Source: Candidatus Aenigmatarchaeota archaeon
GTDB taxonomy: Archaea > Aenigmatarchaeota > Aenigmatarchaeia > QMZP01
Length of the DNA: 22,391 bases
Assembly: GCA_039091855.1 (NCBI GenBank)
Contig: JAWCLA010000009.1
Coordinates: 1 to 22,391, forward strand
Direction: 5' to 3'
Of the stretch, positions 6,014 through 22,391 are shown in pieces. Numbering within the stretch: position 1 is the first letter of the stretch; every line of letters begins with the position of its first letter. Under the pieces are notes generated by a model. That model saw nothing but the letters and a program-made list of their open reading frames with translations, searched no databases and was not told the DNA's origin. The position numbers and the translations under genes were made by a program.

Positions 6014-7136
6014 GCAAAAAAGCTATAACAGTGAGGAAAAGAGAGAAATAAAGCGGCACGAAAAGTCCCATGGTATCCCACATAACACCTGCTATCAGCG
6101 AGGCGGGAAGCGCCGTAAGGCCAACAACCATCTGGAACGCTCCAAGCGTGCTTGCCCTGTATTTTTCAGGCGCGAGCTCTGAAACAAGCGTTTTCTGAAC
6201 GGGCTCGAGGGCTCCTCTGTGAAGTCCGTAAAGGACAAAAACCAACACAACTGCAAAATATGCCTGCACGAGTATGAATGTCAGGCACAGCAATCCCCAA
6301 AATCCAAATGCTGCCATAAGAACCGGTTTTCTCCCTATCCTGTCAGAGAGCTTTCCAAATGGTATTGAGAAAAGGAAAGCCACGGCTGTGAAAATAAGGT
6401 AAAGGACTGGAATGAATCCGACATCAAACCCGAACTCCTTGGCGTATATCAACAGGAATGAATAGCTGAACGAGCCAAGGGCGAAAATACCGCTCAACAA
6501 AAAGAAAAGCCAGAGATTCCTGTCAAAGTCCCTGAATGACACGCCCTTGTAGATTTTATGGCTTTCAGCCTTCCTTTCCCTTATAAGAAAGATTATAAGG
6601 ATAACCGCGATTATTGAGGGTATGGAGGCAAGAAGAAAAATGTTCTGATATCCAAGAAGCCCGAAAAGCAGTATTGTTAAAACTATTCCTGTCACCGCAC
6701 CGAGATTGTCCATTGCCCTCAAGACGCCGAAGTTTCTTCCCCTGTCCTTTTTTGTTGAGACATCCGCTATTATTGCATCTCTTGGTGCGCCCCTCATCTT
6801 TCCTGCCCTGTCAAGAACCCTGAAAGGCACTATGTGCTCCCAAGTTCTTGACAAAGCATAGCCGATTCTCGAAACCCCTCCGCAAAGATATCCTGTCCAT
6901 ATGAATATCTTTCTCTTCCTCGTCCTGTCAGATACATATCCTGAAGCTGCCTGGGAAACAGACACTATGGCATCACCAAGCCCGTCTATGAAGCCGATAA
7001 CTGCCATGTTCGCCTTCAAAACCGTGGCAAGAAAAAGCGGCCAAATCGGGTAAATCATGTCAGAGCCCATATCGTTAAGGAAGGAGGCGGCTGCAAAAAC
7101 CTTAACTGCCCTTTTTGGCTCATCCTTTGCTTTCAT
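5988..7136 (-). CDS. MFS transporter
   Basis: ~12 TM helices. Motif A (GYVSDRTRKRK, GKLSDRIGRK) and DRAGK..RGAPRDA. Confidence 0.93.
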   Translation of the reverse strand: MKAKDEPKRAVKVFAAASFLNDMGSDMIYPIWPLFLATVLKANMAVIGFIDGLGDAIVSVSQAASGYVSDRTRKRKIFIWTGYLCGGVSRIGYALSRTWEHIVPFRVLDRAGKMRGAPRDAIIADVSTKKDRGRNFGVLRAMDNLGAVTGIVLTILLFGLLGYQNIFLLASIPSIIAVILIIFLIRERKAESHKIYKGVSFRDFDRNLWLFFLLSGIFALGSFSYSFLLIYAKEFGFDVGFIPVLYLIFTAVAFLFSIPFGKLSDRIGRKPVLMAAFGFWGLLCLTFILVQAYFAVVLVFVLYGLHRGALEPVQKTLVSELAPEKYRASTLGAFQMVVGLTALPASLIAGVMWDTMGLFVPLYFSLFLTVIAFLLMFFVREK

Positions 7137-7500
7137 AAAAAGCCCTTATTGCCTCTTTCAGCATTCCCTTTGGGGGATATGGATACCGTCTTCCCTTGTA
7201 AAGATATACCCTGCATCCCATAAAGCATTCCTTCCTCACGAATTTTTTTGCCTTCTGCTCGGAGGAAAGTTTTTCGCATGCGACACACTTTCCCTTTGCC
7301 ACTTCGTCCTGAACATCTTTTTCATTTATTCTGACTGTTGGAGAGCCCCTGAAATGATATTTTGTTGCTTTTTGTTTAGTGTCTATTAGTATTTCCTCAA
7401 CTGTCGCCTTGATCCCGAGTTCTTTTAGAGTTTGCCTTACTATCTCTTTTGTCTTCACGCACCAGGGGCAGTCCATCAGGTAAAGAATCTGCACTTCCAT
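7120..7500 (-). CDS. Thioredoxin/glutaredoxin-like protein (DUF2703-like)
   Basis: CPWC motif, GSPTVRIN cis-Pro loop, CRVY. Start overlaps the upstream stop (TGATG). Confidence 0.75.
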   Translation of the reverse strand: MEVQILYLMDCPWCVKTKEIVRQTLKELGIKATVEEILIDTKQKATKYHFRGSPTVRINEKDVQDEVAKGKCVACEKLSSEQKAKKFVRKECFMGCRVYLYKGRRYPYPPKGMLKEAIRAFYESKG

Positions 7501-7850
7501 CAAATCGCCCTTATGAGCATACATTCAGGAGTGAGTTCTATGAAGTGCTTTGCCTGCCCGTCCCTGTATGAGTGGCACTGGTTTTCAGGAACGTTGTCAA
7601 CATCCTGCCTCGGGCTGTGGGCTATGTCGCAAACCCATTCCGGCTCAACGGGTATTGGGTCAAGGAGGCATGGCCCTTTACTCATATCCTCTCCCGAATC
7701 CCTGGCGTTTTTGCAGGAAGAGGTGCAAGCGTTGTAAGCCGCTGAGGGTATGTTGTTATGCACCTGATTTTTTGTGTTGTCGGTAACTGTTTGAACGCAG
7801 CCGCTGACAAAAATCAACCCGATTAGTAAAAAGAAAGCAAATTTTTTCAT
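7500..7850 (-). CDS. Small Cys-rich putative lipoprotein
   Basis: MKK + hydrophobic core + VSGC lipobox-like motif; six further Cys. Confidence 0.7.
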   Translation of the reverse strand: MKKFAFFLLIGLIFVSGCVQTVTDNTKNQVHNNIPSAAYNACTSSCKNARDSGEDMSKGPCLLDPIPVEPEWVCDIAHSPRQDVDNVPENQCHSYRDGQAKHFIELTPECMLIRAI

Positions 7851-8830: not shown

Positions 8831-9193
8831 ATGGAAATTCCGTTTATATCGAACCTTTCCAACGTGGATGCCATAATATTGATAGGTGCAGCCATAGTTT
8901 TCCTTGTGATGGCATATATGGTATTCAAGCAGGTTATGAAGGCTGTGTTGATAGGAACAATATCAGCCGCAATACCAATAATTCTTTATCTTGTAGGTTT
9001 TGAGATAGAGCTAAGCCTGCAGACAATATTATGGTTCGGGCTTGCGGGTATAGCAACATATTTCGTTTACGATGTCATATCGGGTTGGATTACAATTATA
9101 AGAATTTTTACTTGGCCTTTTAGGTGGATTTTTAGGAGGAAAAAAGGCAGTCAAAAGAAGGGGGAAAAGCAAAAGGAAGAAAAGAAAAGTTAA
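8831..9193 (+). CDS. Small membrane protein
   Basis: Three or four hydrophobic helices and a Lys-rich tail. Confidence 0.75.
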   Translation: MEIPFISNLSNVDAIILIGAAIVFLVMAYMVFKQVMKAVLIGTISAAIPIILYLVGFEIELSLQTILWFGLAGIATYFVYDVISGWITIIRIFTWPFRWIFRRKKGSQKKGEKQKEEKKS

Positions 9194-9732
9194 GATTCAA
9201 CTTCCCTTACGCTTATGTCATTACCTCTTTTTATTTCTATGAAACCGTAAAGGTTGGCCTTGTTTCTAACCCACTGTGTTGTTTTGGCCTTTCCTTCAAA
9301 ATTTATTTCTATGTCAAATCTGTCAGGAATTCCTGAAAAAACCCTGCTTTGCATTTCCCCGTCTTCAATGTTGAATTCCCATTGGCTTCCATCAACAGTT
9401 ATTATCGGATTGGTTTCCTTTCCCATAAAGTTGCCCGCTGTGACAACGAGGTCAGATTCCCACGGCTCAGCAACCACCCAGAAAAGCCTTAGCTGTTTTG
9501 ACTGTTGCAAAATGGAATTTTTAACAAAAATGGAAAACGAGGCAAGATTTTGCGTGCCGCTGCCTGACTTCATTCCCAAGTTAAATGCCCTCGGAAGTTC
9601 CATTTCGATATTCTCAGAAACAAATTTCAAGTCTCCCTTTCCCGAGCGGGCTTCAGGCCCATAAAATGGAAGACCTATTAAAAACAGCGCGCACACCAGA
9701 ACCGCACCCAAAATGAAAAACTGCGCTTTCAT
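9190..9732 (-). CDS. Class III signal peptide (pilin-like) protein
   Basis: MKAQFFILGAVLV: K-A/Q cleavage-type motif followed by a hydrophobic stretch. Confidence 0.7.
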   Translation of the reverse strand: MKAQFFILGAVLVCALFLIGLPFYGPEARSGKGDLKFVSENIEMELPRAFNLGMKSGSGTQNLASFSIFVKNSILQQSKQLRLFWVVAEPWESDLVVTAGNFMGKETNPIITVDGSQWEFNIEDGEMQSRVFSGIPDRFDIEINFEGKAKTTQWVRNKANLYGFIEIKRGNDISVREVES

Positions 9733-12735: not shown

Positions 12736-12893
12736 AACTCTCACTTTTGACTAAAATCCAGAAAATATATGACTATAAAATATATATTTTATTAATGTTT
12801 TTTTAATAAATATTTTAAAAATAATCTTTTAAAAAATATCTATTTTAAATATTTTATTAAAATAAATATATTAAAATATAACTATTATAAAAT
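12736..12893. repeat. Left AT-rich iterated tract (TTTTAWAAAATA-like units)
   Basis: Almost pure A/T over ~120 bp; outer boundary AACTCTCACTTTTG. Confidence 0.55.
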
Positions 12894-12967
12894 GAAACAC
12901 TAAAGATTTATATAACCAAATGACATAAAATCAACTGTTAATCTAATTTAATCACTTGGTGTGATAA

Positions 12968-13333
12968 ATGGGTCAAAACCGAATATTGGAGGACTTGTTT
13001 CTGAGGGAGAAGCCGTCAAGAATACTGATGGGTTTGAAAACAAGCAGGGACAAGCCTGTTTATGCGACCATTCTTGCTAAGGAATCCGACTGCACTTATT
13101 CCCACACCATAAAGATACTGAACACCTTCAAGAACCTCGGGATAGTGAAATTCGACAAGCAGGGACGCATAAAGAAGGTCATGCTCACTGATGATGGCTG
13201 GGACATAGCGCACAACATAGAGGCAATGATAAAGAAATTCAACCAGATAGAGGAGATGGCAGCAAAGGACAATGCCAAAAAGAAGGTGTTGCCTGGAAAG
13301 GCTAAGGAAGAGAAGAAGCCCCCTGCCGGCTAA
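12968..13333 (+). CDS. Winged-helix DNA-binding protein (MarR/ArsR-like)
   Basis: YATILAKESDCTYSHTIKIL...GIV.F.K.GR.K.V.LT..G. TTTATATA box at ~12907 and GGTG RBS. Confidence 0.85.
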   Translation: MGQNRILEDLFLREKPSRILMGLKTSRDKPVYATILAKESDCTYSHTIKILNTFKNLGIVKFDKQGRIKKVMLTDDGWDIAHNIEAMIKKFNQIEEMAAKDNAKKKVLPGKAKEEKKPPAG

Positions 13334-13456
13334 AACCTGTTTTTAGGGATTTTTTGCCTATGGAATATAGGGTATAAGCCATCAAAACACACCAAAAAAC
13401 AAGGTTTTTCTTCAGATTGGGAAAAAAACAGTGTCAATTTGTGCTTTTTTTTGTTT

Positions 13457-13487
13457 TTGGTTTACAATTCGTCATTTTGTCAACCAA
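13457..13487. other. dif/att-like inverted repeat (recombination core or operator)
   Basis: TTGGTTTACAA-TTCGTCATT-TTGTCAACCAA: 11-bp arms with 1 mismatch, abutting TTTATAAG TATA box at 13489-13496. Confidence 0.5.
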
Positions 13488-13524
13488 CTTTATAAGCGAA
13501 TCCTTCCCAATATAAAGAGATAGT

Positions 13525-14145
13525 ATGCCGGAATTCGCCTCAATGACTATGAAGGACCTGAAGGGCTATCTGACGGAGGAACAGGTGAACAGGATAATAT
13601 CAAAGGCAAAAAACCCCAGGGATCGCCTAATTTTGCAGATAATGTACAGGTGCGGCAGGCGGGTTTCAGAGGTCCTTATGATAACGAAGGAGGACATCCT
13701 TTGGGACGAAAACAAGATAATATTCAACATATTGAAGAGGAAGCGTCCTTTGAAGGAGATGAAGCCTGTTGATGTCGAAACGATGGAGCTTCTCAGAAAA
13801 TACGTGTCAAGCGTGCCTATAAAAGGGCTTAGGAAAAACATGAATGGGGAGAGGCTGTTTCCAGTGAGCAGGCAGTATGTATTCAAGATGCTCCGTAAGC
13901 TTGGGAAAGAGGCTGGAATAGAGTTTGTCGGAAAAAAGCGGCTGCATCCCCATCACCTGAGGCACAGCTTTGCCGTCCATCAGGTAAGGACGAAGGTGAA
14001 GACAGCTGAGGACCTGCGCAAGCTCCAGATGTACATGAGCCACGCAAATATCGCTACCACCAGCCACTATTTGCAGTTCTCTCCCGACGAGCTCAGGGAC
14101 CTTGTTGATGTATGGAGCGAGAAGAAAAGGCACTCAAAAAAATAA
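13525..14145 (+). CDS. Tyrosine recombinase (Xer/integrase catalytic domain only)
   Basis: GRRVSEV (R), ILK (K), HPHHLRHSFA (HxxR), MSH..I.TT..Y (H, Y). 206 aa with no N-terminal core-binding domain. Confidence 0.92.
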   Translation: MPEFASMTMKDLKGYLTEEQVNRIISKAKNPRDRLILQIMYRCGRRVSEVLMITKEDILWDENKIIFNILKRKRPLKEMKPVDVETMELLRKYVSSVPIKGLRKNMNGERLFPVSRQYVFKMLRKLGKEAGIEFVGKKRLHPHHLRHSFAVHQVRTKVKTAEDLRKLQMYMSHANIATTSHYLQFSPDELRDLVDVWSEKKRHSKK

Positions 14146-14295
14146 TTAATAAATAATATATTTTATTTAATTTGTTTTTTATTATATCTATAAAATAGAA
14201 TATTATTTAAAATAACTATTTTATAAGATTTTTTATAAAATATATTATATAAAAGATATTTTATAAAATATTCTTTTTGCCAAAAAGTGAGGGTT
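14140..14295. repeat. Right AT-rich iterated tract
   Basis: 14-bp tandem units TTTTATAAAATATA / TTATATAAAAGATA / TTTTATAAAATATT at 14231/14245/14259. Outer boundary CAAAAAGTGAGGGTT is inverted relative to the left tract boundary. Confidence 0.55.
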
Positions 14296-16096: not shown

Positions 16097-17914
16097 ATGA
16101 AAGGCAGGAAGGAGGAGTCGCAAACGAGAAGGAAGAGCAGGATTGCTGTCATAGACAGGGAGCTCTGCAATCCCCAGTCGTGTGGGCTTTACCTTTGCAA
16201 TAAAGTTTGCCCTGTAAACCGCTCAGGACAGGACTGCATAACCGTTTCCGAAACAGACAAAAAACCCCTCATAAACGAGGATTTGTGTGTTGGCTGCGGT
16301 ATATGCTGCAAGAAGTGCCCAAAGGGTGCGATAGAGGTAGTTAACCTTCCAGGAGAGCTTGAGGAGGCTCCTGTCCACAGGTACGGGAAGAACCTTTTTG
16401 CGCTTTACAGGCTACCAATCCCGAAGAAAAAGTCCGTGACGGGGCTGATAGGCCAAAACGGGGTCGGAAAGTCCACTGTTTTGAAAATACTTTCAGGAGA
16501 GGTCAAGCCGAACTCAGGGCTTTTCGGAAGGGAGCAGGAATGGGAATCAATAATCGAAAGGTTCAGGGGAACAGAGCTTCAGGACTATCTGGAAAAGCTC
16601 TCGGAGAGAAAAATAAGGGCGGCCCACAAGCCACAGCAGGTTGACCTCATACCAAAAATCTGGAAGGGAAGGGTTTCAGAACTTCTGGAAAGGATTTCGC
16701 AAAACCCGGAACCTGTTGTGAAAGCTCTTGGGATGGTCGGTATGCTTGATAAAGAGATAACGGGGCTTTCGGGTGGGGAGCTCCAGCTGCTTGCCATTGC
16801 AGCGACTATGCTGAAGGACGCTGATTTTTACTTTTTTGACGAGCCTTCAAGCTATCTTGATGTTTACCAAAGACTTTCTGTCGCGAGGGAGATAAGGAGG
16901 CTTACAGAGAAAGCTGTTGTTATGGTGATAGAACACGACCTTGCGGTCGCTGACTATCTGGCTGATTATGTCCACATACTTTACGGAAAACCCGGGGTTT
17001 TTGGTGTTGTCTCAAACCCGTTCAGCGTCAGGGTTGGGATAAACACATATCTCGAGGGGTACATTCAGGAAGAGAATGTTAGGTTCAGGGAGGAGGCAAT
17101 AATGTTCACCAGGACTGCAAAGTCGTCTGAAAAGAACAAACCATTTCTTGATTTTCCGGGGTTTGAGAAAAAATTTCACGGGTTTTCGGTCAAAACAGAT
17201 GGGGGAACAATTCACAAGGGAGAAATAATAGGCATACTGGGTCCCAACAGCACGGGAAAAACCACATTCATAAAGATGCTTGCGGGTATTTTGAAGCCTG
17301 ACAAAATTCTAAATTCGCAAAATTTAGAAAACAAGATGAATGAATTGAGGCTTTCCTATAAGCCACAGATGTTAGCAGCGGGGGATGAAGACATTACCGT
17401 GGAGGAATTCATAAGAAAATCCAAGAGCGAGCTTTCGGCAGAAGAAAGGTCTCTTCTCAGGAATCTTGGCGTTGAACGGATGTTCCTTAGGAGAATGGGC
17501 TCGCTTTCAGGAGGGGAGATGCAATCCGCTTTCGTTTCCGCCTGCCTTCTCAAGGAGTGCGACATTCTTCTTATGGACGAGCCTTCGGCTTTTCTCGACG
17601 TGGAACAAAGATTGAGGGTTGCAAAGGTGTTAAGGTCAAAGAGCGAATCAACGGGAATACCCTGTTTTATAGTTGATCACGATTTGCAGTTTATTGACGC
17701 CATTTCAGACAGGGTTATGATTTTTGAGGGAACCCCAGGAAAGCAAGGTCATGGGCTTAAGCCATGTGAATTGAACGAGGGAATGAACAAGTTCCTTAAA
17801 AATGTCGGTATAACATTCAGGAGGGATCCGCAGACGGGAAGGCCGCGCGCTAATAAGCCAGGCTCACAGAAGGATGTGGAACAGAAGGAAAGCGGAAAAT
17901 ATTACTACAGCTGA
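16097..17914 (+). CDS. rli: Ribosome recycling ATPase ABCE1 (RLI)
   Basis: N-terminal FeS Cys clusters (C.P..C...C...CP; CVGCGICCKKCP), two ABC domains (GQNGVGKS, GPNSTGKT, LSGGE, DEPS), ITFRRDP.TGRPR.NK.GS.KD.EQK tail. Confidence 0.97.
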   Translation: MKGRKEESQTRRKSRIAVIDRELCNPQSCGLYLCNKVCPVNRSGQDCITVSETDKKPLINEDLCVGCGICCKKCPKGAIEVVNLPGELEEAPVHRYGKNLFALYRLPIPKKKSVTGLIGQNGVGKSTVLKILSGEVKPNSGLFGREQEWESIIERFRGTELQDYLEKLSERKIRAAHKPQQVDLIPKIWKGRVSELLERISQNPEPVVKALGMVGMLDKEITGLSGGELQLLAIAATMLKDADFYFFDEPSSYLDVYQRLSVAREIRRLTEKAVVMVIEHDLAVADYLADYVHILYGKPGVFGVVSNPFSVRVGINTYLEGYIQEENVRFREEAIMFTRTAKSSEKNKPFLDFPGFEKKFHGFSVKTDGGTIHKGEIIGILGPNSTGKTTFIKMLAGILKPDKILNSQNLENKMNELRLSYKPQMLAAGDEDITVEEFIRKSKSELSAEERSLLRNLGVERMFLRRMGSLSGGEMQSAFVSACLLKECDILLMDEPSAFLDVEQRLRVAKVLRSKSESTGIPCFIVDHDLQFIDAISDRVMIFEGTPGKQGHGLKPCELNEGMNKFLKNVGITFRRDPQTGRPRANKPGSQKDVEQKESGKYYYS

Positions 17915-18258
17915 GATTTTTTCCTTATTTCTCCGGCAAGTTTTACTATCAGTTTTCGGTAAATGAAGGCGGCAATCACCAAAATCAAAACCACCCAAAA
18001 AAGCGCTATTTTCGTGGCCGAGAGAACCAAAGTTATCGCTCCTGAAACTATTGCAGAAATGAGGCACTCTATTATGAAAACCCCCCTTCCTGTCACCATA
18101 ACGCCATCCATAAGGACAAAAATTCCAATCACGACCAAAAGCGCACCTAAAAATCCATACTGGTTTGCAATGCCGCTTACAACAAGACCACCCCCAACAA
18201 CTCCCTTTAAGATGCTTGTCCAGTTTAAAAGAGGTGGGTAGATTATTTCCTTTGCCAT
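17905..18258 (-). CDS. Small 4-TM membrane protein
   Basis: Four hydrophobic helices; ATG directly follows the repeat-derived GAGGCGAAGCTT. Confidence 0.75.
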   Translation of the reverse strand: MAKEIIYPPLLNWTSILKGVVGGGLVVSGIANQYGFLGALLVVIGIFVLMDGVMVTGRGVFIIECLISAIVSGAITLVLSATKIALFWVVLILVIAAFIYRKLIVKLAGEIRKKSQL

Positions 18259-18533
18259 AAGCTTCGCCTCGTGACAGTTTCATTGCTGTTTTTTAGCTTC
18301 GTGACTTGACGGAGAAGTCGGCTTCGCCGACTTCCAATTATTTTCGCCTTGTGACTTGCATACAAGTTGACAGTAACGGAGAAGGCAGTTACACTGCCTT
18401 CCAATTCCTTTCGCCTTGTGACAGGTTTTTGGAAAGACGACTTTGTTATACTGGCTAAGGTCGTCAAATTACTATTTGGTTATCCTTGCGACTTGACGGA
18501 GAAGGTGCTTCGCACCTTCCAATTAATTGCCTT
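18259..18533 (-). repeat. REP/BIME-like mosaic array 1 (A-C-A-A-B-stub on minus strand)
   Basis: Hairpins at 18314-18334, 18381-18401, 18501-18519 inside conserved TTGGAAG..CTTCTCCGT frames. Units are joined at GTCAC/GTCGC junctions, mostly followed by RAGG. Confidence 0.85.
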
Positions 18534-18540
18534 GTAAAAA

Positions 18541-19074
18541 TTATCCGTATGTTCCTGTGGCTGTAGGAACGCTTTCCGCTGTCTCAAGATTATAATATTT
18601 CTTTATCTCTTCCCTGAAGTTGAGGACGTTGTTCCTACATCTTTCTATCATCTTCCTCCTTACCCTGTGATAGAAAAGATATGAATAAAGAATCCATATT
18701 GGTTTAAGCCACACTCCCCATCCCTTAAATTCTGTCTCAAGCCTTGCGTTCATCTGAAGGGTGAAGTTCCCTTGGTTGGTTGCCTTTGACTTCTTGCCTA
18801 TGACCTTCATATCCACCCACATAGTGGTGTGTCTGCTTAGAGCTTTCTTCACCCACCAAACAGAATAAAAAGAAATGTTCTCACCGACAACATCCCAGTT
18901 TATCCTTGTGTTGCAAGTGCCTGACGCGCTGACATGGAAAAACGGCCTTATCCTGCCGCTTATGTGTTTTGCAACGCCCCAGGGGTTAGGGCCTGTATAA
19001 TATAGCCATATAAACCTGTCCGGGACAAGACAGTCATCAATTATTTTTATTTTTCCTTCTTTCATAAAAACCAT
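18541..19074 (-). CDS. Uncharacterised protein, paralogue of 19528-20097
   Basis: Shared motifs D.C, GPN, NW, WW..K, G....G, L.TE[FY], FYHR.R....E.CR. Confidence 0.8.
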   Translation of the reverse strand: MVFMKEGKIKIIDDCLVPDRFIWLYYTGPNPWGVAKHISGRIRPFFHVSASGTCNTRINWDVVGENISFYSVWWVKKALSRHTTMWVDMKVIGKKSKATNQGNFTLQMNARLETEFKGWGVWLKPIWILYSYLFYHRVRRKMIERCRNNVLNFREEIKKYYNLETAESVPTATGTYG

Positions 19075-19075
19075 C

Positions 19076-19483
19076 CTATATTAAAGGTCCCTTTTCCCTG
19101 TGCTTTTCCAATAGAGGCTGTCCAAGTTTTTTGGCATTTTCTATGAATTCCCACGAAACCCTGTGGTGGAATGGACATTCCGGGGATAGTTCCCATTCAG
19201 CATCCCTTCGATGGTGTGGAAGGGCCAAAGGATAAATCCTGCAGTTTATTGGCATCACTTCCTCTATCGAGCATTTTCCGTTTTTCAGGAATGGACACGG
19301 GTCTCCTTTTATTATGTAAAACCCGTCCCTTTTCGCAAATATTCTCCTTCTCTGTAAAAATCCCATCTTGGTCTTTCTTATTATGTTATCCTTCTCATAT
19401 GGCAATACCACGGGATAAGCGCAACACCTCATATCGCATTCCTCACAGAAATTCTTTCGGTATGAATCATTATTTGCGTCCAT
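19076..19483 (-). CDS. YkgJ / CxxCxxCC cysteine-cluster protein
   Basis: CEECDMRCC...CPFL..GKCSI....P..CRIYP. Confidence 0.85.
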   Translation of the reverse strand: MDANNDSYRKNFCEECDMRCCAYPVVLPYEKDNIIRKTKMGFLQRRRIFAKRDGFYIIKGDPCPFLKNGKCSIEEVMPINCRIYPLALPHHRRDAEWELSPECPFHHRVSWEFIENAKKLGQPLLEKHREKGPLI

Positions 19484-19527
19484 AGTTACCCTTTTGAAAG
19501 ACTATTGTTTTGGTTAAAGCCATCAAT

Positions 19528-20097
19528 TTACTGGTAGTTTTCTTCTGCCTCTTCAATTTTTGGTATCTCCTTTTCTTGGGGAAGCTCTTTGCCTGATATT
19601 TGCTGGAAAAATTCCTTCATCCTCTTCTCAAAAAGTATTATGGAATGCCTGCACTCTTCTGCATACTCCTCCCTCTTCCTGTGATAAAAGACCCTGTGCC
19701 AGAAAGTCCTGAGCATCTCGTAAAAGAGAGACCTCTGCCAAACCGTATCCTGAGGGTATTCTGTTCTTAGCAGGCCCCTGACCCTTATCCTTGCGCTTCC
19801 AGCCTTTTCGGTTCCCTCGCCTGTCAGGGTGAACTGTATGTAAAAATAACTGAATATGTCCATGTCCTTATGAAGCCACCATGTGATGTCGAACTTCTCC
19901 CCCCTTTCGGACTTTCCCCAGTTATACTCCGTTTCCTGTATGTCAGCATCAGAGCACCTGAAAACCGCCTTTATGGTCTCATACATTTTCTTGTAAAGTT
20001 TTATGACATTTGGTCCCACGAACCTCATCTCAACTGCACCAGGCTCCTCCTCAAAGCAGTTGTCCTCCATTGTCAGCTTTGACCTGGCAAAAACCAT
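19528..20097 (-). CDS. Uncharacterised protein, paralogue of 18541-19074
   Basis: Same motifs as its paralogue; GAGGT RBS before ATG 20097. Confidence 0.8.
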   Translation of the reverse strand: MVFARSKLTMEDNCFEEEPGAVEMRFVGPNVIKLYKKMYETIKAVFRCSDADIQETEYNWGKSERGEKFDITWWLHKDMDIFSYFYIQFTLTGEGTEKAGSARIRVRGLLRTEYPQDTVWQRSLFYEMLRTFWHRVFYHRKREEYAEECRHSIILFEKRMKEFFQQISGKELPQEKEIPKIEEAEENYQ

Positions 20098-20187
20098 AAA
20101 CCTCACTTATATTATATTGTCACTGCTGATAATATATTTATTCCCACAGAACAATCATTAATTGTGTATTTAGACAACTTAACTATT

Positions 20188-20349
20188 ACAGCAAAGTCTA
20201 ATTGGAAGTCGGCGAATCCGACTTCTCCGTTGAGTCGAAAGGGTAAACAACAGCAAAGTGAATTGTTGCAAGGCGAAGTTTAAGTGGAAGTCGGCGAAGC
20301 CGACTTCTCCGTCACTGTCGTTTTGGATACAAGTCACGAGGCGAAGCTT
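20188..20349 (+). repeat. REP/BIME-like mosaic array 2 (A-D-A-stub)
   Basis: Hairpins GAAGTCGGCGAA(T/G)CCGACTTC at 20205-20225 and 20287-20307; ends GTCACGAGGCGAAGCTT-ATG. Confidence 0.85.
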
Positions 20350-20523
20350 ATGTTCGGCTGGATAGGAACAATAGTTGGAATATTGCTGCTGCTTTTTGCA
20401 GCCTTTATGATTTTTTTCTTTCCTGCTGCCGAAGAGCATCAACCAAGAGGAGTTGATGTAAATGGTGTCGTTTTTGGTTTCATTGCAGGACTGTTGGGAA
20501 TCGCGCTGATTTTTCTTCCCTGA
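20350..20523 (+). CDS. Small 2-TM membrane protein (57 aa)
   Basis: Two hydrophobic helices; ATG follows the GAGGCG RBS-like repeat stub. Confidence 0.7.
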   Translation: MFGWIGTIVGILLLLFAAFMIFFFPAAEEHQPRGVDVNGVVFGFIAGLLGIALIFLP

Positions 20524-20562
20524 ATAAAGAAACTAATTAAGGTGTTCTTCCAATATTTAATT

Positions 20563-22158
20563 ATGTCAGAATCCTTTCTTGACAGGTTGCCTGAACCAAA
20601 GGGACTTGTAGTGGACGAGCTTCAGAAATGGGCAATAGACAAGAGCCCCGTAGGATATGCTGTGATGGGCTGGCCAAGGGAGATGTTCATAATACTGGAT
20701 TACACAGGACTTAGGGGAAGCGGCTCAAACGTTTTCTGGACATTCACCCATAGGGTAGGAAAGATGAGATACACAATAAAAAAAGTGGATGAGTGGGTTG
20801 AGATAAACCCAAACTACACAGAGCTTTACAACGCGATGCTTGGCCAGAAGCAGAGAATAGAGGGAACAATAAAGGCGAGCCTAGCATCTGTCGCTCAGGC
20901 AGTTGCTGATTACGAACTTCTTAAACACGACGCCAGAAGGTACAGGGAGATTCTGGACTATTTCAAGAAAGGGGAGAAGGACGAGCACGTGATGAGGTCG
21001 CTTTTCGTTGACAGGGTTGATGCATACACAGGAGAGGGATATTCACTTGTCACAATGGCAAAGAGATGGCCAACCATAATAACCGATTTCATAAGGATGA
21101 GTGAGGACTGGGATGACGTGAATGTGATAAGGAAGGAACTTGATGTCTCGCAGGCAGAGGCAACTGTCCTGAAAACGAAAAACGAGCTTTACAAGGAGTG
21201 GAAGAAGCTTTTTCTACCCACTGTAAAGGAGAGGTACGCGAGAATACAGGCGCTTGTCAAGGCGAGGGAAAGGTCAATAGACGAGTACAAGAACTGGCTC
21301 AGGCCGCACATAGCTAAATACAAGGCAATGAGGGAGGGAACCGAACACGGGGACTGGTCGTACGTGACCAACGCTTTCTCAACGCCCGGCTTCGGGACAA
21401 TGGATTCCTGGTCATACGTAAGGTTCTGGGTATGGAGACCTTTCCAGCCCGTTGAGGCAGGAAAACCAGAGGCAATGGTCGAGGGAGGCAGCAAGAGAGA
21501 GGGTTTCATAATAGACCCTTATGACGATTTCGTCAGGCACTGGAAGGCAAAGATAGAGAGGCATTACGGGATTAAAATAACTGACAAGGATGTGGAAGAC
21601 ATACTTTCAAAAGCGATAAAGCAAAGTGAACAGTCGCACTGCTCAGAAATGGAATCCCAGGCGCTTTACTACCTTCTTTTCGATATGAAGATTCTTCTGA
21701 ACACGCTGAAGAGCCCACCCCCTGAAGGCGTGGAGATGGACAACATAATGTTCATACCGATAAAGATATGGGTGATGTCCCAAAACTGCATGCTGATACA
21801 CCTTCTTGAACTTTATGCAAAGGAAAAATATATGGAAAAATATATGGATGAGCTGATAGGAGCAAGGAGCATAGAGGAAGACATATACAGAAGCGTGGAA
21901 GAGGAGTTTTCAGGAAAAAAGGAGGAAGAAAAGAAAGCGGGTAAAAGTTCCTTTTTGGGTGGTTTGAAGCCGAGATACGTTTCCGATGGTGATGAATTCA
22001 GGCCTAACACCATGATGAGGTTTGTGAGATTTTTCGTCAAGCCAGGTCCATATGAGCCTGTTTTCTTCGAGAGGCTCAGCAAGATGTACTTCAGGGCAAG
22101 CGGGTTTTACTTCAAGCAGATGGTTGACGTGATTAAAGGCGCGATGGGAATTGAGTAA
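20563..22158 (+). CDS. Large uncharacterised, partly coiled-coil cytoplasmic protein
   Basis: 531 aa ORF with typical coding composition; no family recognised. Confidence 0.8.
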   Translation: MSESFLDRLPEPKGLVVDELQKWAIDKSPVGYAVMGWPREMFIILDYTGLRGSGSNVFWTFTHRVGKMRYTIKKVDEWVEINPNYTELYNAMLGQKQRIEGTIKASLASVAQAVADYELLKHDARRYREILDYFKKGEKDEHVMRSLFVDRVDAYTGEGYSLVTMAKRWPTIITDFIRMSEDWDDVNVIRKELDVSQAEATVLKTKNELYKEWKKLFLPTVKERYARIQALVKARERSIDEYKNWLRPHIAKYKAMREGTEHGDWSYVTNAFSTPGFGTMDSWSYVRFWVWRPFQPVEAGKPEAMVEGGSKREGFIIDPYDDFVRHWKAKIERHYGIKITDKDVEDILSKAIKQSEQSHCSEMESQALYYLLFDMKILLNTLKSPPPEGVEMDNIMFIPIKIWVMSQNCMLIHLLELYAKEKYMEKYMDELIGARSIEEDIYRSVEEEFSGKKEEEKKAGKSSFLGGLKPRYVSDGDEFRPNTMMRFVRFFVKPGPYEPVFFERLSKMYFRASGFYFKQMVDVIKGAMGIE

Positions 22159-22173
22159 AATGGTTTAGTCTTT

Positions 22174-22391
22174 CCAAATAGATTGACGAACTCGACCAAC
22201 ATAAAAAATTCGTCTTTCCAATATGTCACGAAGCTAAAAAAACAGCAATGAAAACTGTCACAAGGCGAAAACAACTGGAAGTCGGCGAAGCCGACTTCTC
22301 CGTTGAGTCGAAAGGGTAACCAACAGCAAACTGAATTGTTGCAAGGCGAAGGTTAAGTGGAAGTCGGCGAAGCCGACTTCTCCGTCAAGTC
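22174..22391 (+). repeat. REP/BIME-like mosaic array 3 (C-B-A-D-A, truncated by window end)
   Basis: Hairpins at 22278-22298 and 22360-22380; modules shared with arrays 1 and 2. Confidence 0.85.

Follow-up and report, generated by a model that had tools for sequence, protein, structure and literature searches.

Repetitive extragenic palindromes (REP) and the bacterial interspersed mosaic elements (BIME) are made of hairpins and linkers, occur singly or clustered, are transcribed with their neighbours and favour 3' ends and convergent intergenic sites, as set out in the sections of PMC3184786 devoted to them. The same sections present REP2 of Neisseria and IR-A and IR-B of Borrelia as single units that place a ribosome-binding site (RBS) and an ATG directly upstream of genes, mycobacterial interspersed repetitive units (MIRU) as intergenic units of 40-100 bp that are found in polycistronic mRNA, show empty and filled sites and have ends touching genes, and BOX elements as modular, transcribed and non-autonomous, with a variable number of internal modules (PMC3184786). 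Here we report on a variation on this theme in an archaeon, a Candidatus Aenigmatarchaeota genome (GenBank assembly GCA_039091855.1, hereafter G000), through three intergenic arrays near the end of contig JAWCLA010000009.1; this contig, 22,391 nucleotides long, was analysed whole and is referred to as the window. The repeat unit, of ~55-80 nt, consists of a hairpin, a variable linker ending in GTCAC and a box, AAGGCGAA, that resembles a Shine-Dalgarno (SD) sequence; the units run in the direction of the neighbouring gene, and many arrays end just upstream of its start codon. We consider it probable, with moderate confidence, that the arrays are REP/MITE-like (MITE, miniature inverted-repeat transposable element), non-autonomous repeats, restricted to a lineage of Aenigmatarchaeota, that supply a replacement RBS. 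Literature searches brought up no account of repeats of this kind in Aenigmatarchaeota or in other DPANN archaea; the sections of a 2024 MITE census that name MITE-dense DPANN genomes name other ones (PMC11602168), and its supplementary tables might list the lineage.

The arrays share with REP and BIME short GC-rich hairpins with conserved flanks, many intergenic copies and clusters with few linkers. Successive REPs in BIME clusters alternate in orientation, whereas the present arrays are one-directional, adjoin start codons, carry an SD-like box in each unit and reside in an archaeal host. A first-pass annotation of the window, made from its letters alone, had likened them to BIME; as regards alternation this likeness fails, all copies lying on a single strand within each of the 12 multi-copy loci. 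Their position is closer to that of REP2, a box, 1-6 nt and an ATG following each other at 14 of 21 loci, where the box would act as RBS. REP2, however, is a single unit of 120-150 bp with a promoter, for which those sections report no tandem mosaics, and has no sequence similarity to the present units. As in MIRU, units stand in tandem between genes, orthologous sites are found empty and filled, and ends lie at neighbouring genes. MIRU, in contrast, are reported to hold small open reading frames (ORFs) that overlap the flanking genes at their stop and start codons and to show tetranucleotide direct repeats at filled sites, whereas the arrays contain in-frame stops, have stems that vary regardless of codons and spacers whose lengths vary by non-multiples of three, and show no such direct repeats consistently. 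BOX elements are likewise modular, built from few types in variable number, but have fixed end modules, are thought to be moved by an insertion sequence (IS) transposase and are not tied to start codons. The arrays are a variation on the bacterial REP/MITE theme rather than a new kind of system.

A dispersed family of covarying hairpins

The window is the complete contig C38 of G000, a 689-kb draft assembly of 38 contigs with 84% completeness, and the DNA runs that contain the stretch are labelled as hot-springs metagenomes; a search for RNA runs covering 17800-22391 returned none. The pattern GGAAG-N8-22-CTTCTCCGT matched the window seven times, against 0.00 expected from 100 shuffles. A covariance model (CM) of the basic unit, A, was built on 26 copies (model R1) and run under strict filters on the draft assemblies of 47 genomes, namely G000, its congeners G001 to G004, G062 from a different genus and 41 further genomes of the family. 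It matched G000 41 times, and we grouped these matches into 23 loci on 13 contigs; G003, G001, G002, G004 and G062, whose assemblies are 78-92% complete, held 11, 10, 7, 7 and 16 copies, respectively, and the 41 other family genomes none. The dispersed, non-coding family of modules proposed in the annotation is supported, and extends to four congeners and one other genus.

Loci carry 1 to 6 units in an order that varies from one locus to another; in many cases, neighbours in an array have the same sequence (C13, C23, C1 and, with an 80-nt period, C4), and identical stem subtypes turn up on many contigs. The box AAGGCGAA itself was counted 87 times in G000, where base composition would predict 19.1. 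Modules B, C and D were counted genome-wide with blastn-short, nhmmer with single short modules giving no match. C and D recur elsewhere in G000; full copies of B number two, both within the window and, by eye, variants of the D-type linker; a fifth linker, E, of which 20313-20337 is an example, was recognised by eye at many loci. Rfam returned no match at E up to 1 over the entire window, and no match was found in viral contigs, phage records or plasmid records. A pattern scan of metagenomes hit 11 contigs, none of them with a CM match, which we take as chance, and an exact-pattern scan of genome contigs found one other Aenigmatarchaeota metagenome-assembled genome only. The annotation had set restriction to a single locus, a fixed arrangement in relatives and an Rfam match against its own proposal; what we found is dispersal, differing arrangements and no Rfam match. 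Arrays end two contigs (C33:1-115 and the window itself), and in Logan contigs of four DNA runs, at ~5x cover, fragments break at the arrays and provide no usable empty or filled joints; the depth summed across arrays in these data is not a copy number. The same copy of a C-type hairpin stands at both ends of the largest G000 contig (C1:43-88 and C1:62581-62626), which fits assembly-breaking repeats, or a circular or duplicated join.

The feet of the hairpin are conserved (TGGAAG ... CTTCTCCGT) and its lower stem, GAAG/CTTC, is constant; the upper four to five pairs are swapped wholesale among subtypes (TCGGC/GCCGA, GCAGT/ACTGC, TTCC/GGAA, ATGC/GCAT, GCGC/GCGC and others). Pairing is preserved in 99.1% of 235 stem cells, compared with 34-57% in slid controls, and four of the ten pairs vary on both sides (39 cells), with a covariation score that none of 500 shuffles reached. 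Beyond the invariant basal G.U, five G.U cells and no A.C cell were seen, which, small as these numbers are, agrees with use of the structure on the strand shown. The loops are mainly G-N-A triplets closed by a C-G or T-A pair, a very stable kind of hairpin in DNA, and folding of the units gives z-scores of -1.7 to -2.9, whether they are treated as RNA or as DNA. When whole arrays are folded as RNA, only the hairpins form and the box is not consistently sequestered; in a hand alignment the box pairs with the 3' foot of the hairpin at seven of nine positions, the two mismatches being identical in both genera, a pairing on which the whole-array folds are inconsistent. The boxes AAGGCGAA, TGGA and TCTCCGT are retained in the two genera despite the changing stems.

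Some copies depart from this plan. At C6:13755-13782 of G000 and at the array-1 site of G003, the loop reads TTC instead of GAA on the same stem, the core of the palindrome being flipped relative to its flanks, and a second unit sits within the loop of an A-type hairpin, as a hairpin in a hairpin, on G003:C4 (the orthologue of array 3) and on G001:C96 (the L37Ae site). The nested hairpins of G003 and G001, together with the one flipped loop, hint at events on extruded or single-stranded DNA.

Arrays adjoin start codons and end in a Shine-Dalgarno-like box

Two of the 23 loci run off contig ends, leaving 21 that could be assessed. Eighteen of these face a co-oriented gene start, and at 14 an ATG that opens an ORF of 57 aa or more follows the last box, at a spacing of typically 3-5 nt. 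Read towards the gene, the 3' end of an array consists of the junction GT(C/A)AC, the box AAGGCGAA (GAGGCGAA in the window), the spacer and the ATG. The annotation had overlooked this position next to start codons, the shared direction of array and gene, and the SD-like box at the array end. The downstream genes encode EF-1beta, a MinD-type ATPase, L37Ae, S8e, RNA polymerase subunit N, an FttA-like protein, a tRNA-binding protein and the two small membrane proteins of the window, and serve mostly translation, transcription and replication. A rhomboid gene on C11, preceded by a C module and a box only, makes a fifteenth case of adjacency. Nine of the 11 best matches inspected in G001-G004 follow the same rule, as do all six arrays printed for G062, in one case with a native SD intervening. 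At 15 of the 16 sites listed, in-frame stops are met 21-126 nt before the ATG, and at the remaining one 258 nt before it, which marks the arrays as non-coding.

The 16S rRNA gene was not found in the G000 assembly, and the 3' end of the 16S rRNA was taken from the congener G003, where it reads GGATCACCTCCT; AGGTGA is fully complementary to this end, and AGGCGA has one central mismatch to it. The sequence AAGGTGAA occurs 65 times in G000 (26.0 expected), with an ATG 3-6 nt downstream in 10 of the 65; it is itself the box of the G001 arrays, and two G000 arrays end in it. The spacing between box and ATG resembles that of plain SD sites, and some linkers are, by eye, A/T-rich ~30 nt upstream of the ATG. 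From these alignments and spacings the box is probably an SD sequence that serves as RBS. Since boxes precede the ATG at array ends, the natural unit is a hairpin followed by a linker and a box; the annotation had drawn the boundaries of A otherwise, attaching each box to the hairpin of the unit that follows. Its suggestion that the end of the element regenerates its own target fits this arrangement, in which all units would end in the box that precedes the ATG.

The FttA-like ORF downstream of the array on C6 (13703, minus strand) spans only 287 aa, members of the FttA/aCPSF1 family usually being about twice as long; it may be frameshifted, split or interrupted.

Orthologous sites with and without arrays

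Empty orthologous sites, which the annotation had proposed to look for, turned out to be the rule: all eight comparisons revealed empty or differently filled sites, with at least one congener devoid of the array at each. At the position of array 2, the window has two units, G001 and G002 have a single one, and G003 and G004 only a TATA-like box that precedes the ATG by ~22 nt, an SD being absent. At the position of array 1, a spacer of 18 nt that includes AGGTGA is found in G002, and in G003 a different array of three hairpins that again ends in AAGGCGAAGTTT and an ATG. The gene downstream of array 3 is leaderless-type in G002 and preceded by other units in G001, G003 and G004. The MinD, EF-1beta, C36, C34 and L37Ae sites likewise show one or more array-free congeners, the EF-1beta site of G002 being reduced to a 4-nt spacer. 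Several of the empty sites are leaderless-type (TATA-like box, ~22 nt, ATG). The absence of the box from empty sites indicates that it arrives with the element, and the filled and empty states vary from site to site in a way that calls for several gains or losses.

The 3' edges of arrays are constant and their 5' edges heterogeneous. Five filled alleles of leaderless type, at two sites, have ATG, ATA, GTG or AGG at the 5' edge, a feature absent at the other sites. In G002:C5 and G003:C17, at the orthologues of the start at C34:23803, an 11-nt insert made up of AGGTATCT and an ATG follows an ATG or ATC at the old start; the insert could be a footprint or a seed of the element, with the start codon duplicated.

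Layout of the three arrays in the window

Modules A to D were recovered where the annotation had placed them, the seven copies of A by pattern search and R1, and so were the array orders (A-C-A-A-B on the minus strand, A-D-A and C-B-A-D-A) and the junctions GTCAC, GTCGC and GTTGC. Its parse required revision in part: A to D are real, B is a variant of the D type, and linker E had been folded into A. The arrays had been confined to 18259-22391, which is correct apart from the lower limit; the last boxes of arrays 1 and 2 are separated by 4 nt from the ATGs at 18258 and 20350, and the system reaches slightly beyond 18259.

Array 1 lies on the minus strand. Its first unit A (18488-18539; CM 60.3 bits), with a degenerate box AAGGCAA and stem GTGC/GCAC, begins 2-7 nt past the stop codon of the gene at 18541-19074. 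It is followed by module C (18418-18487), a second type of hairpin with a GACG..CGTC stem, a large loop and a TTTCCAA tail, by a unit A with stem GCAGT/ACTGC and loop GTA (18367-18423; CM 68.7 bits, supported by folds), by a unit A comprising an SD-like box and a hairpin with stem TCGGC/GCCGA and loop GAA (18301-18356; CM 76.8 bits) and by linker module B (18271-18300), the D-type variant, delimited by sequence and blastn-short. The terminus at 18256-18275, read from the sequence, consists of the junction GTCAC, the box GAGGCGAA, 4 nt and the ATG (18258-18256) that opens the gene of a 117-aa membrane protein (17905-18258, minus strand). These 20 nt form a perfect inverted match (I18) to 20333-20352, at the end of array 2.

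Array 2, on the plus strand, is preceded by a TATA-like box (20131-20141), the putative promoter, and a GTG (20163-20165), aligned by eye with G003 and G004; this GTG occupies the position of the leaderless ATG in the empty orthologous sites of these two congeners. A unit A devoid of an upstream box and with one stem mismatch, GAATCC (20184-20238; CM 50.0 bits), linker module D (20239-20269; direct repeat D1 and blastn-short) and a second unit A (20264-20321; CM 74.6 bits) lead to the terminus at 20313-20352, where, by sequence reading, linker E (20313-20337) is followed by the box GAGGCGAA, 4 nt and the ATG at 20350 of a 57-aa membrane protein gene (20350-20523, plus strand).

Array 3, also on the plus strand, starts 16 nt past the stop codon of the gene at 20542-22158 with module C (22174-22229), continues with linker module B (22230-22261), a unit A (22256-22311; CM 74.0 bits) and linker module D (22312-22342), and ends in a unit A that is cut by the contig end (22337-22391; CM 72.0 bits). 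In the congeners a gene on the same strand, whose protein starts with MPFKLGV or MPYKLAV, comes next after this position. The two copies of module C form an inverted pair (I8; 22174-22229 and 18418-18487 minus) with 79% complementarity, arrays 2 and 3 have in common a 115-nt direct repeat (D1, 96% identity) that includes their D copies, and arrays 1 and 3 are inverted copies over 73 nt.

Repeats within and beside tRNA genes

C11:12051-12349 is a tRNA-Met (CAT) gene with two inferred introns, one of 168 nt at position 37/38 and one of 57 nt in the T-arm. The 168-nt intron carries an array in antisense, and the box, GTTT and ATG found there make use of the reverse complement of the CAT anticodon. 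ARAGORN with introns allowed reported nothing in the tRNA regions of C11 and C2, and recognised the C11 gene after both introns had been removed. At C2:15430-15700 a tRNA-like gene, whose 5' half includes a CAA anticodon loop, is split by a long insert containing an A-type hairpin and a AAGGCGAA box. A second repeat family, with hairpins of the types CAGCCCTTTCCAAGAAAGGGTTGA and GGCCCTTTTTTCAAAAGGGCTGA, is found next to tRNA gene fragments of G000 or between them (C2:14512-14662, C3:21347-21378, C6:4634-4863, C7:5757-5908, C7:9798-9846, C19:7433-7566 and C37:23741-23789); these loci are probably tRNA introns or leaders missed by standard finders.

Search for a mobilising enzyme

G000 has two genes of the Y1 (HUH) type, both on C37. 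They score 93 and 66 bits as IS200-type (cut-off 55), and 29 and 18 bits as REP-associated tyrosine transposases (RAYT; cut-off 80), the enzymes of REP systems, whose genes typically lie between REPs and which were not detected in the G000 draft. The Y1 gene at C37:6950-7513 (minus strand) contains two in-frame TAG codons (7478-7480 and 7214-7216) and is flanked by hairpins of its own at ~6886-6925 and 7760-7800; either this is a pseudogene, or the gene derives from a source in which TAG is read as sense. The other (C37:9001-9324) has no N-terminus and lies in an IS200-type element both ends of which (8877-8946, 9572-9620) belong to a third repeat family, transposase-less copies of which are found at C5:2606-2808, C8:9644-9847, C35:9117-9185 and C35:14643-14691, like a palindrome-associated mini-element. 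The hairpin ends of both genes are unrelated to modules A-D. The arrays differ in this from palindrome-associated elements derived from IS200/IS605, whose two ends carry distinct subterminal hairpins shared with a resident IS200/IS605, the resident IS ends (of the C5, C8, C35 and C37 type, and the hairpins beside C37:7094-7513) bearing no relation to the modules. Y1 is present in one of six module-bearing genomes, none being found in G001-G004 or G062, versus 10 of 41 module-free ones. Family searches of the G000 draft for TnpB, IS110 and reverse transcriptase gave nothing above cut-off. The annotation had linked the modules to RAYT and IS200 enzymes and had suggested a search for a Y1/HUH or IS110 gene flanked by them. 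The Y1 genes are IS200-type with other ends and unrelated flanks, which does not support this link, and IS110 was not found in G000.

The statement in the annotation that the window encodes no transposase is accurate for transposases, and needs amending in that a tyrosine recombinase is present. Its ORF (13525-14145, 206 aa) covers the catalytic domain only, is XerA-like with 118 bits, below the cut-off of 220, and has orthologues of 64-85% identity in 10 of the 47 family genomes. We rejected it as the mobiliser of the arrays: orthologues (E <= 1e-86) are found in 10 of 47 genomes, only two of which bear modules, and there is no co-occurrence. Two very A/T-rich palindromic repeat blocks (I4, I5, I10, D2-D4) at 12774-12889 and 14137-14278 bracket this ORF and another of 121 aa (12968-13333), and the region 12774-14278 may be a small integrated element.

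Origin and function of the arrays

The organization of the arrays suggests how a non-autonomous repeat that brings its own RBS could be accommodated. Units follow one another head to tail, oriented like the transcript, from the transcription start (or an upstream stop codon) to the start codon, an interval that in compact genomes would be the sole non-coding space on offer and the place where insertions are tolerated. An insertion there would sever the gene from leaderless or coupled initiation unless the insert ended in an SD; a formerly leaderless or tightly coupled gene would thereby gain a structured leader, with the box of the element keeping translation possible. The arrays would be transcribed as leaders, and they would have spread by transposition-like copying. 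Their growth would combine local tandem duplication with the arrival of units from other loci, leading to shuffled mosaic orders. If insertion is tolerated only with a terminal SD, selection alone could produce the start-codon rule.

Several observations weigh against this interpretation. Seven of the 21 loci do not adjoin a gene start: the array on C23 occupies a convergent 3' region as far as the stop codon of the gene opposite, that at C33:7.9k stands ~90 nt upstream of its gene, the box and ATG on C36 and C37 open ORFs of no more than 17 and 18 codons, with the real start and its native SD following 13 and 58 nt later, the pilin-like gene on C12 follows a box, CTT and AAG rather than an ATG, in a reading frame that continues through the array from an upstream ATG, and units on C11 and C2 lie inside tRNA intervening sequences. 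Given its central C.A mismatch to the anti-SD, the box would be a weak SD, and promoters (TATA-like boxes) were judged from the sequence by eye. No terminal inverted repeats are visible at the sites compared, and no target duplication is consistent across them. A mobilising enzyme was not found in the 84%-complete draft, in which its gene could be unassembled, and mobility is suggested by dispersal and by differences between genomes rather than by an observed event.

It is possible, although we consider it unlikely, that the start-codon rule reflects a more specific mechanism, in which a transposase-less 'mobile leader' homes to the ATG at the single-stranded edge of the transcription bubble of leaderless genes, duplicates or replaces this ATG and supplies an SD and an ATG, making each array a chronological stack of hits on a single start codon. 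The ATG-like remnants at 5' edges, the junction at the tRNA-Met anticodon, the ORFs of 17-18 codons and the upstream ATG of the pilin-like gene are hints in this direction. Alternatively, the arrays may be cis-regulatory RNA leaders of a housekeeping regulon, whose boxes and hairpin would be recognised by a protein or the ribosome for mRNA stability at heat or translation tuning, with an adaptive copy number. A strand-specific fold along the direction of transcription, boxes kept in two genera while stems change, and downstream genes devoted largely to translation, transcription and replication would all suit such a role, and the Neisseria REP2 repeats, with promoter, RBS and ATG, precede co-regulated genes in the sections of PMC3184786 cited above. 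We nevertheless deem it improbable, since at 8 of 8 sites congener orthologues are without the array or have different units, copy number (1-6) and order differ by locus, copies are found in antisense in the tRNA-Met intron, in a tRNA-like gene and at a convergent 3' end, and whole-array folds produce hairpins only, with the box not consistently sequestered and no Rfam match. The frequent identity of adjacent units (in C13, C23 and C1, and with the 80-nt period of C4) would follow from slippage or unequal recombination in place, starting from an old shared leader motif and involving no mobility between loci, likeness among loci being due to gene conversion. Congener empty sites devoid of a starting motif, the same stem subtypes on many contigs and a filled and empty pattern across five congeners that needs several gains or losses make this the least likely of the explanations considered.

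Two further proposals concern the machinery that would handle the units. REP/BIME-like elements could be moved by a Y1/HUH enzyme (RAYT or the TnpA of IS200/IS605) that cuts single-stranded DNA at GTCAC beside the hairpin. In favour of this stand the short, GC-rich hairpin, its conserved single-stranded flanks and a pentanucleotide that is constant at unit junctions. The hairpin folds as DNA as well (z-scores of -2.3 to -2.9), G000 has two Y1 genes, and the nested hairpins of G001 and G003 suggest insertion into single-stranded DNA. Both genes, however, are IS200-type and not RAYT, one being interrupted by TAG codons and the other N-terminally incomplete; each has unrelated hairpin ends, one type of which has non-autonomous copies of its own; Y1 was not found in G001-G004 or G062 at 78-92% completeness, and occurs in 10 of 41 module-free genomes; and the orientation of units does not alternate as in BIME. 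We regard this proposal as highly improbable. No more credit can be given to mobile mini-introns excised by the archaeal splicing endonuclease, which would be harmless wherever their flanks form a bulge-helix-bulge (BHB), mRNA leaders included, and of which the family members in the 168-nt tRNA-Met intron (37/38) and in another tRNA-like gene are reminiscent. A strict 4-3-4...4-3-4 BHB scan of eight arrays, crude in that relaxed forms would be missed, gave counts at about the shuffled level (15 observed against 14.4 shuffled, 8 against 9.2, 13 against 4.2, 84 against 58.7, 29 against 15.8, 12 against 9.8, 12 against 9.6 and 36 against 27.0) and no motif bounding an array; a conserved box at SD distance would be purposeless if spliced out, and the array in the tRNA-Met intron is antisense. 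Mini-introns are accordingly very improbable too.

Whatever their origin, these repeats break assemblies, hide tRNA genes from standard finders and can pass for N-terminal extensions of proteins. If the arrays are indeed non-autonomous repeats that supply a replacement RBS, a selfish repeat would persist in a 0.7-Mb genome with almost no spare DNA, paying for its place with a ribosome-binding site. Leaderless genes are the usual type in archaea; the arrays would turn such genes into SD-led ones, and such insertions would then amount to natural experiments that contrast the two ways in which archaea initiate translation.

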